Below are positions 50,493-60,071 of a stretch of DNA of 64,000 nt, one piece after another. The stretch is from Escherichia phage EK5. The DNA lies in the sequence record PQ805429.1. The stretch is one strand, 5' to 3'. A program made the translations under genes and the position numbers. Below the pieces are notes generated by a model. That model made no database searches. It was not told the origin of the DNA and worked only from the letters and a program-made list of their open reading frames with translations. Numbering within the stretch: position 1 is the stretch's first letter; each line of letters starts with the position of its first letter.

Positions 50493-51692
50493 ATGTTTCC
50501 AGTAACATTAGAAGATACTGAAGGTAATGTTTTAACAGTCAACCCTCCTTGTTATGGGTTCCTTCAGCTTCGCAACTATAACGGTGGCGTTGATGAAGAC
50601 GATGAAGAGTATGATGACTACTTCGACCCTAACATGTATGAGGCAACTCATGGATGGAATATGCACGTTCGAGTGTGGCATGAAGAAGCTAACGTTCGTA
50701 GTGCTGATGGGGAAGAGTTCCTGTTAAGCCGAGAGATGGATATGTGTAAAATCAAGCATATCTGGAACTCTGGAACTCATATGAAGATGTTAGGTTTTAG
50801 ACGTTGGCGTGATGAAAAGCATGTAGCTGAAGCTTTAAGTTGGTGTTCGTATGAAGATGAAGACACGCCCCCTAAGAACAACATCGAACGTTGGAACGAC
50901 AAAAACCCTGAGCATCGAACCACACCTCGTGCTGTACTGGAAGCTATGGAAGCATTTGTGGACAAAGATCGTCCCTCCTGTTTACGCTGGCACGATAAAG
51001 GTTTTATGGGGGTAGCAACTGAGAATATCCCTGCTGATCGTTGTCTGTTCTATTTGATGTTAGACCGAATCTTCTATTGTGAAGATGAAGAGAGTCAAGT
51101 TGAAACCTTCCTCCATAAATGGTTGGTTGAAGGCTGGACAATCCTTCAGGCTTATGTTTACTCACGAATGGTTAGCACTTACACTAACCTCTTAGGGGAA
51201 ACGAAAGCAACTCTGGTTGGTAATGATTGGGATGCTTGTATCTTCCCAGCGTCGCTGTTTACAGTTGGCATGGCTAATAAATACGCTGAAGCATTTCAAG
51301 TGCCTTGGCGTCAACAGTCATATAGAGATGGATGCGGTCATTTCCGTGATGAAGACTTTAAGTGGATTCATTACGAGAATGATGAAACAGCAGAATTACG
51401 AGTTAACAACTCAATGTTCTTGCCAGTGATGCACCCCGATCTAGTAAAAGACGGGTCAGAGACACTTAAAGGTGATAATCTTTTGGTTAACTTTACCCGT
51501 CGCGTGTCTAAAAATGAGAAAACAGCTAACAGGTTAATCTACGGCATTCGTGCCGAGGCTAAAGACCTGTTCAACATCTACAACATCATTCAGCGATTTA
51601 GTAGTGGAACTCTGGACCAAAGTTCGGAGTATTCAGTGATTCCGTCCTCTGAGTGGGATGGTATTATGAGCGGATTATTTTTAGGAAAATAA
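50493..51692 (+). CDS. Hypothetical protein, first gene of the amidoligase cassette
   Basis: 399 aa, tightly packed with downstream genes; no motif recognised. Confidence 0.45.
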   Translation: MFPVTLEDTEGNVLTVNPPCYGFLQLRNYNGGVDEDDEEYDDYFDPNMYEATHGWNMHVRVWHEEANVRSADGEEFLLSREMDMCKIKHIWNSGTHMKMLGFRRWRDEKHVAEALSWCSYEDEDTPPKNNIERWNDKNPEHRTTPRAVLEAMEAFVDKDRPSCLRWHDKGFMGVATENIPADRCLFYLMLDRIFYCEDEESQVETFLHKWLVEGWTILQAYVYSRMVSTYTNLLGETKATLVGNDWDACIFPASLFTVGMANKYAEAFQVPWRQQSYRDGCGHFRDEDFKWIHYENDETAELRVNNSMFLPVMHPDLVKDGSETLKGDNLLVNFTRRVSKNEKTANRLIYGIRAEAKDLFNIYNIIQRFSSGTLDQSSEYSVIPSSEWDGIMSGLFLGK

Positions 51693-51702
51693 AAGGTTAG
51701 TT

Positions 51703-52674
51703 ATGTCAATCTCCACAACGATCGTACCTCTTAATCTTCAACAGGATTTAGGGGAACAGAAGTTCTTAGGTCGTGGGTGCTTCGGTATCCACAACTACAT
51801 GCAAGGTCAAGTCATATATGATGTTAATGACGAATGTGTAATGGAAGATGGGCGCCATAAACGCTTCAACCGTGACATTAACTTGCAATTGGAGATGTTG
51901 AATTACTGGACCCACTCTTTTCATGGTCATGTTCCATCTGATATTGAAAAGAACTTGATTGAAACAGCAGACATTATGAATTCTATGTCTTGCTATCGTG
52001 ATGTATTTACTATCACTTCAGCGAACAGTGTTGCTGTCAATCTTCGTGAGCATCCAGCAGATCAGATCTTCACAGGACTTATGCTCTTCCGTAGTATTCT
52101 GGAAGGGCAATATCGTGGAATGGATTTCCTAGCAGAAGGAATTGAAGACAGGGAAGAGTGGCTGAAGCGTAAACGCATCGGCATCGCTCTAGTGTTAGCT
52201 GGGTTGGGTCGTGACTTCTTCGGTGGGTGGTCTCAACGAGGAAGAGCCAATGGGAGTAGCGAGAGCACCTCTATTGTTATTAACAACAATATGTCAGCAG
52301 CAGCTTTCCTTCCTTTGGTTGTAGACTCTGATGAATATACGAAGCAAGTATGGGTTCAAAACCCCTTCGGTGTTGGCGACAATGAGAATGGTTATGTTCG
52401 TAACCACAACCAAGATGCCTTACGAAGATTTGCTCGTGCTAAAGATCAAGACCCAGACGAGTATGAAACAATGTCAGAGTGGTTAAGACTCTGGTCCAAC
52501 TGTTATGGTCACAAACGTGAAGCAATAGACGACAAGTTGGGAAACATTACGGTACAAAACTTTACATCCCGACTGATTCAAAGAACTGGAGCAGATTCCG
52601 GTCTTACTCTTGAAGAAGTTGGTAACACAATCTCATCTCTCTTTTCTGAACTAGTGGAGTATTACAATGACTAA
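51703..52674 (+). CDS. Hypothetical protein (cassette)
   Basis: 323 aa; overlaps the next gene start. Confidence 0.45.
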   Translation: MSISTTIVPLNLQQDLGEQKFLGRGCFGIHNYMQGQVIYDVNDECVMEDGRHKRFNRDINLQLEMLNYWTHSFHGHVPSDIEKNLIETADIMNSMSCYRDVFTITSANSVAVNLREHPADQIFTGLMLFRSILEGQYRGMDFLAEGIEDREEWLKRKRIGIALVLAGLGRDFFGGWSQRGRANGSSESTSIVINNNMSAAAFLPLVVDSDEYTKQVWVQNPFGVGDNENGYVRNHNQDALRRFARAKDQDPDEYETMSEWLRLWSNCYGHKREAIDDKLGNITVQNFTSRLIQRTGADSGLTLEEVGNTISSLFSELVEYYND

Positions 52675-53473
52675 GCGCAAATTCCTCATCGGCTCTGACC
52701 CTGAAATGTTCGTTCGTACTAGTAATGGTATCATCACTTCTGTAGCCGGTTTATTAGGCTGCTCTAAGGACGATAAGATCGCTCTGGCTAAGGATGTTCG
52801 TCTCCAAGAGGACAACGTACTGGCTGAGTTTGATATTGACCCACAGAGCGGTTTTGAAGCGTTTAACGATAACATGCAACGTGGTATTGATCTCACCAAT
52901 AATGTCCTGAACAAACTGGACATGGAAACAGCTCCGGGTGTTAGCTCTCACATCTTCACTGAAGAAGAGATGAAGACCTTTAACGAATCAGCGTTCATCT
53001 TCGGGTGCACTCCTGATTTCAACGCCTTCACTGGTCAGAAAAACCCATCCCCGACTTCTCAGAATAAGGGACTTCGTACTGCCGGTGGTCACGTACATCT
53101 TGGCGTAGTTGGTGCTTTGGATATCACTCTGCAAACTCAGATGATGCTGGGTGTGTTGTGTGACTACTTCCTGTCTCTCCCAGCAGTAATTATGGACAAA
53201 GATACTCGCCGTAAAGAACTCTACGGTAAAGCATCTGCAATCCGTTATAAAGACTATGGTATTGAATACCGCTCTCTGTCTAACTTCTGGATTAGTGATC
53301 GTGAAAACCGTAAGTTTGTTTACGATCAGGTTGACAAGGTTGTTCAGCAGTGTGATATGTCCACTCTGATGGCATTGCACTCTCGCCTTCCGATTGAGAA
53401 GCTTCATGAAATCATTAACGGGAACAACGTTAAAGAAGCTGACCAGCAGATCAAACTCCTTCAGGTAGCATAA
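52667..53473 (+). CDS. Amidoligase-like protein (glutamine-synthetase-fold COOH-NH2 ligase), paralog 1
   Basis: GSDPEMF, AGGHVHLG and YGIEYRS motifs parallel those of the 54097 gene and fit the putative amidoligase family pattern. Confidence 0.45.
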   Translation: MTKRKFLIGSDPEMFVRTSNGIITSVAGLLGCSKDDKIALAKDVRLQEDNVLAEFDIDPQSGFEAFNDNMQRGIDLTNNVLNKLDMETAPGVSSHIFTEEEMKTFNESAFIFGCTPDFNAFTGQKNPSPTSQNKGLRTAGGHVHLGVVGALDITLQTQMMLGVLCDYFLSLPAVIMDKDTRRKELYGKASAIRYKDYGIEYRSLSNFWISDRENRKFVYDQVDKVVQQCDMSTLMALHSRLPIEKLHEIINGNNVKEADQQIKLLQVA

Positions 53474-53482
53474 GAGGTTATC

Positions 53483-59205: not shown

Positions 59206-59387
59206 ATAAGTATAAAGTTCTGTTTAAAGATACTAACGACGCTGGTGATATGCGAGCTATGGACCTAGATGCTGACATGTTTAACTTCTCTGATGGCAAA
59301 GTAGCCTTCTTTCAGGGAAGCGAAGCTGTTGCAGTATTTGAGAGTGCAGCAATCTGCGGTGTAATCAAAATCTTTATTACAGAGTAA
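59202..59387 (+). CDS. Hypothetical protein
   Basis: GTG start overlapping upstream stop. Confidence 0.35.
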   Translation: MNKYKVLFKDTNDAGDMRAMDLDADMFNFSDGKVAFFQGSEAVAVFESAAICGVIKIFITE

Positions 59388-59440
59388 TCTGCTTTAGCCT
59401 CTTCGAAAGAGGAGGCTAGTTCGGATAAGCTGGAGGTTTT

Positions 59441-59650
59441 ATGAAACATGAAAGATTGAGTAAAGCCATTGACTCTGTATGGGATTCTGGGTGTATTATA
59501 TACCGAGAGCACGACTCATACGGACAAACCAGAATATTGATTCTTAATTCCTTCTGTGAGAAGTTGGGGTTAGAAGTATTTGTAACAGGAGCCACTGATC
59601 AGCAGTGTGCTTACATTGAAAACATCGTTAAAGACTGGAAAGGTATTTAA
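59441..59650 (+). CDS. Hypothetical protein
   Basis: SD GGAGG before ATG. Confidence 0.4.
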   Translation: MKHERLSKAIDSVWDSGCIIYREHDSYGQTRILILNSFCEKLGLEVFVTGATDQQCAYIENIVKDWKGI

Positions 59651-59651
59651 A

Positions 59652-60071
59652 ATGTCAGAAGTAATTTACGTAGCAACTTATGGTTCTCTTCGTCGTGGTC
59701 AAGCTAACTATTTAGTTAATGACCGAGCTGGTGCTAAATCTATTGGAGAAGGTTGGACTGAAGATAACTTCGATCTGTTCCGTTACGGTGGTTCCTACTT
59801 CCCGAGCATCTCTCTCGCACACAGCAATAACAATAAGCCTGTTCGTGTAGAAGTGTTTGCTACTGACAAAGCAGGTCTGGAAGGTCCGTATGACCGTCTG
59901 GAAGGTTACAACAAACGTAGCCCTGAAGACAGCTTCTATCAGCGTACTCAGATTGCTGTTAAGATGGACTCAGGTGAAACTGTTATCGCTTGGATTTATC
60001 ATATCGACGAAGAACAAGATGTTCTGGTTGAATCTGGTGACTGGTCAGAGTATCTGAAAAGTGAATCTTGA
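59652..60071 (+). CDS. Gamma-glutamyl cyclotransferase-like (AIG2/GGCT family) protein
   Basis: N-terminal VIYVATYGSLRRGQAN carries the YGSL hallmark; ATG 59652 internal to the listed 59607 ORF. Confidence 0.6.
   Translation: MSEVIYVATYGSLRRGQANYLVNDRAGAKSIGEGWTEDNFDLFRYGGSYFPSISLAHSNNNKPVRVEVFATDKAGLEGPYDRLEGYNKRSPEDSFYQRTQIAVKMDSGETVIAWIYHIDEEQDVLVESGDWSEYLKSES

Follow-up and report, generated by a model that had tools for sequence, protein, structure and literature searches.

The genome of coliphage phiEco32 contains, from phi32_88 to phi32_77, a cluster of predicted amide-bond enzymes labeled as a COOH.NH2 ligase, an amidoligase, an 'L-glutamine-D-fructose-6-phosphate aminotransferase', a 'ribosomal protein S6 glutaminyl transferase', and a gamma-glutamyl cyclotransferase (GGCT). 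The cluster is followed by genes for a primase/helicase, a DNA polymerase exonuclease subunit, a nucleotidyltransferase, and a dCTP deaminase, and its annotation in phage SU10 is identical. Here, we analyze the counterpart of this cluster at positions 50493-60071 of a 64,000-nt stretch of Escherichia phage EK5 (PQ805429.1; the whole stretch is hereafter the window), which belongs to a Kuravirus (phiEco32-like) coliphage.

The cluster is long known and has already been described. Its genes were annotated with the phiEco32 genome, and the Pfam family PF14395, 'Phage phiEco32-like COOH.NH2 ligase-type 2', carries the name of the phage. According to a paper that cites their work, Iyer et al. 2009 analyzed the neighborhood and proposed that it modifies the cell wall (PMC10580990). 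The term 'peptidoglycan modification cassette' is that of Hardies 2013/Duhaime 2017, who are cited as recording the cassette as kept in RIO-1, phiEco32, 7-11, PA11, tf, LUZ24, PaP3, and CW02 (PMC5498523). The same genes in Phage-ZRK32 were interpreted in 2024 as auxiliary genes of nitrogen metabolism (PMC10945688). A preliminary description of the EK5 locus stated that no such system is biochemically characterized in a phage, and this is consistent with our full-text literature search, which found no enzymology, genetics, or metabolomics of the cluster, with two primary papers outside its reach. The novelty that the same description implied does not stand, as the cluster is in the phiEco32 annotation and in Pfam and was analyzed by Iyer et al. 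2009; the observation is not a discovery. What the present analysis adds is a census of 85 loci, the separation of core from accessory genes, the alternation of GGCT with Peptidase_C26, a definition of the protein families B and C, a conserved ATT start codon, and the recognition of gp79 as an embedded gene.

Enzyme sets of a related kind are known from cellular metabolism. A GCS/GS-type ligase, an ATP-grasp ligase, and gamma-glutamyl-cleaving enzymes together make up the enzyme set of glutathione metabolism. In transient gamma-glutamylation, as in the putrescine (PuuA/PuuD), ergothioneine (EgtA/EgtC), and butirosin (BtrJ/BtrG) pathways, a ligase installs the gamma-glutamyl group and a hydrolase of a class-I or class-II glutamine amidotransferase (GATase) fold or a GGCT removes it; of these enzymes, PuuD is a Peptidase_C26 member and EgtC a class-II GATase. 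PafA and Dop pair a ligase with an amidase and, going by their Pfam clan and reportedly by Iyer 2008/2009, share a carboxylate-amine ligase superfamily with the two phage ligases, here called L1 and L2.

Core genes and predicted gamma-glutamyl cleavage

Megablast against 50,697 phage records matched 50493-60071 in 98 records, nearly all of them Escherichia or Shigella Kuravirus phages. The closest is phiEc_1 (LC768462; 99.9% identity, 100% of the region covered), and phiEco32 (NC_010324) is 96.9% identical across 98% of the region, which amounts to nucleotide-level orthology with the type locus. As expected of a phiEco32-type amidoligase cassette, the PF14395 and PF12224 genes point in the same direction, in a run with GATase, ATP-grasp, and GGCT genes beside the primase/helicase gene. 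The main proteins of the EK5 locus are as follows (N-terminal nucleophile is abbreviated Ntn).

51703-52674, + strand: protein B, 323 aa (phi32_87), directly upstream of L1, phage-only family
52667-53473, + strand: L1, COOH-NH2 ligase type 2, 268 aa (phi32_86; PF14395; PHROG 3815)
53483-54100, + strand: protein C, 205 aa (phi32_85), between L1 and L2
54097-55200, + strand: L2, Amidoligase_2, 367 aa (phi32_84; PF12224)
55280-57310, + strand: class-II (Ntn) glutamine amidotransferase/amidohydrolase, 676 aa (phi32_83), domain at residues ~1-230, ATT start
57754-58950, + strand: RimK-like ATP-grasp ligase, 398 aa (phi32_80), with an acidic linker and a C-terminal domain of ~80 aa
59652-60071, + strand: AIG2/GGACT-type GGCT, 139 aa (phi32_77; PF06094)

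The family calls made beforehand, namely an amidoligase-like pair, a class-II GATase, an ATP-grasp enzyme, and a GGCT, were upheld by Pfam and profile searches, and the PHROG assignments agree with Pfam for the module proteins.

By tblastn, L2 was found in 298 phage records and L1 in 306, with nearly the same spread over hosts (L2/L1), including Pseudomonas (120/121), Escherichia (92/93), Aeromonas (11/11), Proteus (8/8), Salmonella (7/7), and Cronobacter (6/6). The gene order directly upstream of the primase/helicase gene is identical in 7-11, PaP3, Vp_R1, PA11, and Vibrio phage 1.208.B, and the EK5 locus shares Pfam families and gene order with PaP3, 7-11, and PA11, with nothing essential different. 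A scan of IMG/VR with the six-lineage L1 alignment returned 422 loci, 80 of which were analyzed; the census comprises 85 loci and used hidden Markov models from six lineages. L1 was present in 85, L2 in 84, the class-II GATase in 80, the ATP-grasp ligase in 79, and C in 60 loci, followed by GGCT (50), Peptidase_C26 (30), a small DUF7195 protein (23), and protein A (8). The spacing between L1 and L2 is 402-1523 nt (median 623) in 84/84 loci with both ligases. Most of the loci missed by the C model have an unassigned open reading frame (ORF) of ~180-240 aa in this slot, and in every locus where C was recognized, its stop runs into or directly adjoins the start of the longest L2 ORF. The core is L1, the ~200-aa protein C, L2, the class-II GATase, and the ATP-grasp ligase, in a nearly invariant order.

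Of the 79 complete-core loci, GGCT without Peptidase_C26 is found in 47 and Peptidase_C26 without GGCT in 25; 2 carry both, and the remaining 5, which are 7-11-like, carry neither enzyme within 9 kb. The Peptidase_C26 calls were backed by Pfam in 4/4 IMG/VR proteins that we spot-checked (E 1e-16 to 1e-23), with GICRG and HPE motifs visible, and the PA11 protein likewise matches Peptidase_C26. The EK5 GGCT matches PF06094 at 63.6 bits (cut-off 22.8; E 3e-17) and has the YGSL and RLEGY motifs in its translation; we take the Glu of RLEGY to be the GGCT catalytic residue. GGCT and Peptidase_C26 are unrelated folds that both cleave gamma-glutamyl bonds, and because they replace each other, the module appears to make and break a gamma-glutamyl linkage. 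This replacement is the strongest available evidence for such chemistry and points to cleavage of a gamma-glutamyl bond as a required step.

As the product we tentatively favor, at somewhat short of an even chance, an amide or peptide conjugate of low molecular weight that contains a gamma-glutamyl group. It would arise in the cytoplasm, ahead of DNA replication or while replication proceeds, and its gamma-glutamylation would be transient or recyclable. Three ATP-dependent carboxylate-amine ligases (L1, L2, and the RimK-like ATP-grasp enzyme) would form up to three amide bonds. At least one of these would be a gamma-glutamyl amide, joined to an amine by one of the GCS/GS-like ligases, and the second ligase and the RimK-like enzyme would add further residues. 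The Cys1 Ntn domain of the GATase would either pass ammonia from glutamine to a ligase or hydrolyze a gamma-glutamyl amide, and GGCT, or Peptidase_C26 in other lineages, would cleave the gamma-glutamyl group off again, as either 5-oxoproline or glutamate. Protein C probably links the two ligases L1 and L2 or gives the pair its specificity, and B would be a candidate for an extra catalytic or binding subunit. From the protein families and their conservation, we infer all of these reactions, that the substrate is a small molecule, and what B and C do. On our best reading, the module is ancient, vertically inherited, and pre-replicative in podophages of the phiEco32, 7-11, LUZ24/PaP3, and Zobellviridae types.

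Ligases, amidotransferase, and phage-only proteins

L1 matches PF14395 at 34 bits (cut-off 25; E 2e-8), and its D-P-E, GGHVH, and E-Y-R motifs are conserved across six lineages. L2 matches PF12224 at 33.7 bits (cut-off 22; E 5e-8), with E31, E33, E35, H95, H97, E186, and R188 invariant in six lineages. The two had been presented as paralogs that both have G-x-E-x-E and HVH motifs. The acidic motif is present in L2 (54097-55200) as GIELELE, whereas L1 (52667-53473) has G-x-D-P-E instead. Paralogy was not borne out, with a BLASTP E value of 3.3 and an hhalign probability of 0.5%; with 73 sequences per side, hhalign aligned 37 columns, around HVH only. L1 and L2 do have short acidic, H-V-H, and E-x-R motifs in common, and according to Pfam and Iyer 2009 they belong to one superfamily. 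In Salmonella phage 7-11, the amidoligase ORF (gp103, L003:7509-8000) has an extra low-complexity N-terminal extension of ~165 aa.

The N-terminus of the GATase matches GATase_6/7 above the Pfam cut-off (E 1e-14). Its start had been placed at 55280, and this is correct: the codon there is an ATT right before the catalytic Cys. Because the frame has a stop at 55274-55276 and its next canonical start, TTG 55619, lies deep within the domain, ATT 55280 must be the start. The sequence AGGTGG is located 8 nt upstream of ATT-TGT, in which TGT encodes the Cys. Both AGGTGG and the ATT start are kept in all Kuravirus loci that we examined (phiEco32, SU10, NJ01, ECBP2, and KBNP1711-type), and more distant relatives have ATG-TGT at this site. 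The conserved non-canonical start may serve to throttle GATase translation.

Alignment to 1xff, the GlmS glutaminase domain, indicates that the Gln-binding and oxyanion residues of GlmS (R73, N98, G99, and D123) are kept in the GATase domain together with Cys1; across six lineages, there is no variation in Cys1, R28, G29, or the N-G pair. This conservation supports a predicted site for free Gln or a gamma-Glu head group, that is, one with a free alpha-amino and a free alpha-carboxylate group. With Cys1 and the GlmS residues intact and invariant in six lineages, the protein is therefore predicted to be a competent glutamine/gamma-glutamyl amidohydrolase. These residues and the alternation of GGCT with Peptidase_C26 strengthen the general reading of the preliminary description, that of ATP-dependent amide-bond formation with a gamma-glutamyl theme. 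Residues 240-676 of the GATase have no Pfam match to a known acceptor (synthase) domain. This C-terminal part of ~440 aa varies in length between lineages and ends in Cys-rich zinc-ribbon-like motifs.

NCBIfam models of the housekeeping enzymes fit the GATase poorly, with scores of 36 vs 418 bits for glmS, 25 vs 350 for purF, and 21 vs 267 for asnB (score vs cut-off), and 42 bits against a cut-off of 381 for the subfamily model NF001484. The ATP-grasp ligase likewise scores 27.4 vs 331 bits for the RimK equivalog and 33.9 vs 143 for the RimK subfamily. With the GlmS, PurF, AsnB, and RimK models at 21-42 bits against cut-offs of 143-418, the possibility that these are ordinary nucleotide-metabolism enzymes is excluded.

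The ATP-grasp ligase is assigned to PHROG 2599, and its C-terminal 82 aa constitute a separate PHROG, 20552. As a single sequence, it scores under the Pfam cut-off. A seven-lineage profile matched structures of RimK-family alpha-L-glutamate ligases over ~210 residues (E 9e-9 to 3e-8), with weaker matches to D-Ala-D-Ala ligases (E 1e-4), cyanophycin synthetase, 3vpb (3.5e-3), which we take to be ArgX, and microviridin ligases. K85, E157, R159, D229, E241, and N243 are invariant in the seven lineages, in a stretch aligned to the catalytic region of RimK/Ddl; presumably they are Mg/ATP ligands. Together, these results support a relationship to RimK at the superfamily or nearest-relative level only. 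Although RimK-family enzymes (E 9e-9) are its closest solved relatives, the cassette differs from RimK and LysX/ArgX systems in having no LysW-like acidic Zn-ribbon carrier and in the extra acidic linker and C-terminal domain of the ligase. The ATP-grasp protein of Vibrio phage Vp_R1 (L005:10092-12344) is 750 aa long, a second case, after the 7-11 amidoligase, of a core enzyme extended in one lineage.

Three proteins of the run had been listed as unknowns. Two of them, B and C, belong to the module in distant phages as well and are conserved there, and the third, A, was found in Kuravirus-type loci only. Protein B has 23 representatives among 1.84 billion proteins. Jackhmmer links it to the ORF that precedes L1 in 7-11-like phages, and the resulting family aligns with a ~300-aa ORF located upstream of the L1 gene of 26 marine loci (hhalign probability 94.7%, E 6e-8). 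Cys26, Asp120, Arg130, Glu187, Gln219, Tyr231, and Arg233 are kept in at least 29 of 30 sequences, a polar pattern that looks like an active or ligand-binding site. The predicted structure of B (pLDDT, a model-confidence score, of 68) gave no fold match. We regard B as a candidate new enzyme or binding subunit.

Within Kuravirus-like phages, protein C has a mean column identity of 69%. It is recognizable in six lineages by the invariant residues D6, Y10, R106, and G165 and the motif R-x-x-[KR]-[KQ]-G-L, and among 5.8 billion sequences searched, its relatives are all phage proteins, with no fusions. The predicted structure has SH3/Tudor-like beta-barrels and a conserved basic loop that is predicted to be disordered and is the most conserved segment of the protein. 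On this model, C is likely a scaffold or specificity subunit.

Mass spectrometry of SU10 preparations identified the GATase, ATP-grasp, GGCT, and amidoligase proteins of the cassette, which were listed as early products (PMC4281155).

Candidate products of the cassette

At the family level, the cassette resembles glutathione metabolism in its GCS-superfamily ligase, ATP-grasp ligase, Ntn-type amidohydrolase, and gamma-glutamyl cyclotransferase. It is unlike it in that the Ntn enzyme is a class-II GATase and not GGT, in having two GCS-like ligases as well as B and C, and in the lack of a GshA or GshB match. The resemblance to transient gamma-glutamylation is similarly partial: the EgtC model matches weakly (E 2.5e-4), scores to the named enzymes of these pathways are far below the cut-offs, and the cassette has neither a known-family tailoring enzyme between installation and removal nor an acyl carrier protein. 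A universally present small protein that might act as a tag or acceptor by virtue of a conserved terminus or an invariant lysine was not found, and we counted this for a small-molecule product.

Several observations weigh against a small gamma-glutamyl conjugate. Sequence profiles found no solved relatives of L1 or L2, and the GS/GCS-like fold that we assign to them rests on Pfam membership together with the acidic, H-x-H, and E-x-R motifs. The loci are related, and the alternation of GGCT with Peptidase_C26 thus represents a few replacement events and not 79 independent ones; moreover, the 7-11-like loci have neither enzyme nearby. No known family of tailoring enzymes, whether redox, pyridoxal phosphate-dependent, or other, is represented in the module, which would leave a metabolite pathway dependent on the uncharacterized protein B. 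The long, variable, Cys-rich C-terminal half of the GATase and the SH3/Tudor-like C resemble parts that bind macromolecules more than they resemble small-molecule enzymes.

These last two features would fit protein modification, in which glutamate or a short peptide would be put on a host or phage protein in the manner of RimK, TTLL, or PafA, the class-II GATase and GGCT/Peptidase_C26 would trim or erase it, and C or the C-terminal half of the GATase would recognize the target. We consider this unlikely, although the ATP-grasp ligase is closest to RimK, which extends a protein C-terminus, and PafA/Dop are in the same superfamily as L1 and L2. Peptide tagging was reportedly raised as a possibility by Iyer in 2009. 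The small ORFs at 57313 and 57527 had been put forward as substrates, but they are lineage-restricted and have no conserved terminal residue. DUF7195 is present in just 23/85 loci, C has no invariant Lys or conserved terminus, and neither has the C-terminal Gln/Glu of a Pup-like tag or a C-terminal Gly; we thus found no candidate for a Pup- or ubiquitin-like tag or a LysW-type carrier among them. In addition, no sequence similarity of L1 or L2 to solved structures was detected, the RimK equivalog score is far under its cut-off, and GGCT and Peptidase_C26 act on free gamma-glutamyl head groups, not on alpha-linked poly-Glu tails or folded proteins.

A reading from the literature, remodeling of cell-wall precursors, holds that murein-peptide-like linkages are built or altered to exclude superinfecting phages or prepare lysis. 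Gamma-glutamyl linkages and amidation by a GATase are typical of murein peptide chemistry (MurT/GatD), the ATP-grasp profile matches D-Ala-D-Ala ligases, and the named hosts of cassette phages are overwhelmingly Gram-negative. Nonetheless, we judge it distinctly unlikely. No Mur-ligase, transpeptidase, amidase, or lipid II-related domain was found in the module with Pfam or NCBIfam, the proteins appear cytoplasmic, with no signal peptide or transmembrane feature noticed in the translations, and the module lies within the replication gene block and not the lysis block. The reading is attributed to Iyer 2009 and Hardies 2013 in passages of later papers (PMC10580990 and PMC5498523), and in the literature that we found, it is a hypothesis without an experimental test.

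The parallel of the enzyme set with GshA/GshB/GGT/GGCT also allows an auxiliary role in nitrogen or amino-acid metabolism, a phage gamma-glutamyl cycle that would salvage or redistribute glutamate, glutamine, cysteine, glycine, or glutathione-like thiols for the benefit of phage replication. Some phage records label the ligases glutamate-cysteine-ligase-like, and this is how the Phage-ZRK32 genes were interpreted (PMC10945688). That claim is correlative, however, and the ligase families are specific to phages and lack close orthologs in cells, NCBIfam yields no GshA or GshB match, and a salvage cycle has no role for the phage-only proteins B and C. A salvage role is therefore improbable in our estimate.

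We hold it to be very improbable that an amino-acyl or gamma-glutamyl-type group is put on phage DNA, deoxynucleoside triphosphates, or RNA. A specific form of such hypermodification, a new DNA pathway in which the amidoligases would put a glutamyl-type group on phage DNA or its precursors and B, C, and the GATase tail would face the nucleic acid, is a longer shot still. If true, it would explain the resistance of Gordonclarkvirinae to EcoRI- and EcoRV-type restriction despite a normal site frequency. These phages resist restriction without a known mechanism (PMC11990801), the GATase tail is Cys-rich, and the module is always directly upstream of the primase/helicase and DNA polymerase genes, although this adjacency may just reflect a shared ancestral block of early genes. 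In the window (1-64000), EcoRI and EcoRV sites occur at normal frequency (13 observed vs 13.8 expected and 30 vs 33.7, respectively), and NdeI and XbaI sites are at expectation. However, PstI (0 vs 17 expected), SacI (0 vs 13), and KpnI, NcoI, and SphI (0 vs 4-5) sites are strongly avoided, GATC is at 0.45 of expectation, and there are just 5 CCWGG sites, suggesting that the DNA is not generally protected. The Pfam and NCBIfam matches of the module proteins include no TGT/DpdA, aGPT-Pplase, kinase, glycosylase-like protein, methylase, or PP-loop ATPase, and with PHROG matches added, there is none of the enzymes of the 5-hmdU (5-hydroxymethyldeoxyuridine) kinase/aGPT-Pplase, DpdA/7-deazaguanine, or Mom systems. 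The authors of the BASEL collection favor other genes than this cluster, proposing that the dCTP deaminase and the nucleotidyltransferase might underlie a DNA modification such as deoxyuridine (PMC11990801).

Accessory and neighboring genes

The following genes lie within the run but outside the core.

50493-51692, + strand: protein A, 399 aa (phi32_88; PHROG 13063)
57313-57546, + strand: DUF7195 protein, accessory, 77 aa (phi32_82; PF23825, E 5e-17)
57527-57751, + strand: non-core ORF, 74 aa (phi32_81; PHROG 13464 only)
58957-59205, + strand: phi32_gp79, 82 aa, 100% identical to phi32_79, between the ATP-grasp and GGCT genes
59441-59650: ORF of 69 aa, with a same-sized annotated counterpart in SU10 and none annotated in phiEco32

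Protein A has no Pfam or NCBIfam match and was found by jackhmmer solely in 8 Kuravirus-type loci. The A and B families align over 133 columns (hhalign probability 51%, E 1.5e-4) and have a P-A-D...L-M-L-x-R motif in common, making A a probable distant paralog of B; homology of A with PaP3 orf49/orf50 was not demonstrated. DUF7195 occurs in Kuravirus, 7-11-like, and Bruynoghevirus loci, was undetected in marine loci, and has no conserved terminus across its relatives. A similar-sized ORF after DUF7195, matched by size and position, is present only in Kuravirus and 7-11-like loci.

The co-directional, tightly packed run on the + strand is present as described, with these junctions:

51703-52674 / 52667-53473: 8-nt overlap
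53483-54100 / 54097-55200: 4-nt overlap (ATGA)
55280-57310 / 57313-57546: 2-nt gap
57313-57546 / 57527-57751: 20-nt overlap
57527-57751 / 57754-58950: 2-nt gap
59441-59650 / 59652-60071: 1-nt gap

The packing thus holds, but the view of the cassette as one run needs amendment, as it is interrupted at 58957-59205 by the gene of the characterized transcription regulator phi32_gp79. The gp79 protein is encoded by a middle gene; it inhibits transcription by the sigma70 holoenzyme and activates the phage sigma factor gp36, and neither 7-11 nor GAP52 has it (PMC8948821). Its ORF is an unrelated insert and is outside the amide-bond module. At 59441-59650, the phiEco32 megablast match splits into its two pieces, and this position looks like a small indel hotspot within the run. 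In phage YF01, an HNH endonuclease is annotated inside the matched region.

Upstream of the cluster, a 103-aa protein (47985-48296) has a sigma70 region-4/helix-turn-helix signature (PF08281, E 2e-7); its phiEco32 counterpart, phi32_99, is annotated as 'transcriptional regulator, D5-like'. Downstream, after the polymerase exonuclease gene, 62634-63947 (ORF call from 62577) encodes a CCA-adding/poly(A) polymerase-like nucleotidyltransferase with a weak PF01743 match (E 2e-3), and in phiEco32, the dCTP deaminase gene comes next after the nucleotidyltransferase gene. In most marine GGCT-type loci with downstream sequence, a conserved 155-aa ORF is found 1-2 ORFs past GGCT (L033:14217-14684; ~25 loci). 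This ORF weakly matches the Enc34 ssDNA-binding protein family (E 5e-3), a further sign that the module borders on the replication genes.

With ~300 sequenced phages and >400 IMG/VR loci, the cluster is among the most widespread unexplained enzyme sets of tailed phages, and the guesses about it have been purely computational since 2008-2009. Phages of the BASEL collection that infect E. coli K-12 and are amenable to genetics (Bas88 and Bas90-92) carry the cassette, making its function directly testable. The identity of the product would define the chemistry of the PF14395 and PF12224 ligases and of the phage-only families B and C, and the product might also help to account for the way in which these phages resist restriction, which is so far unexplained.

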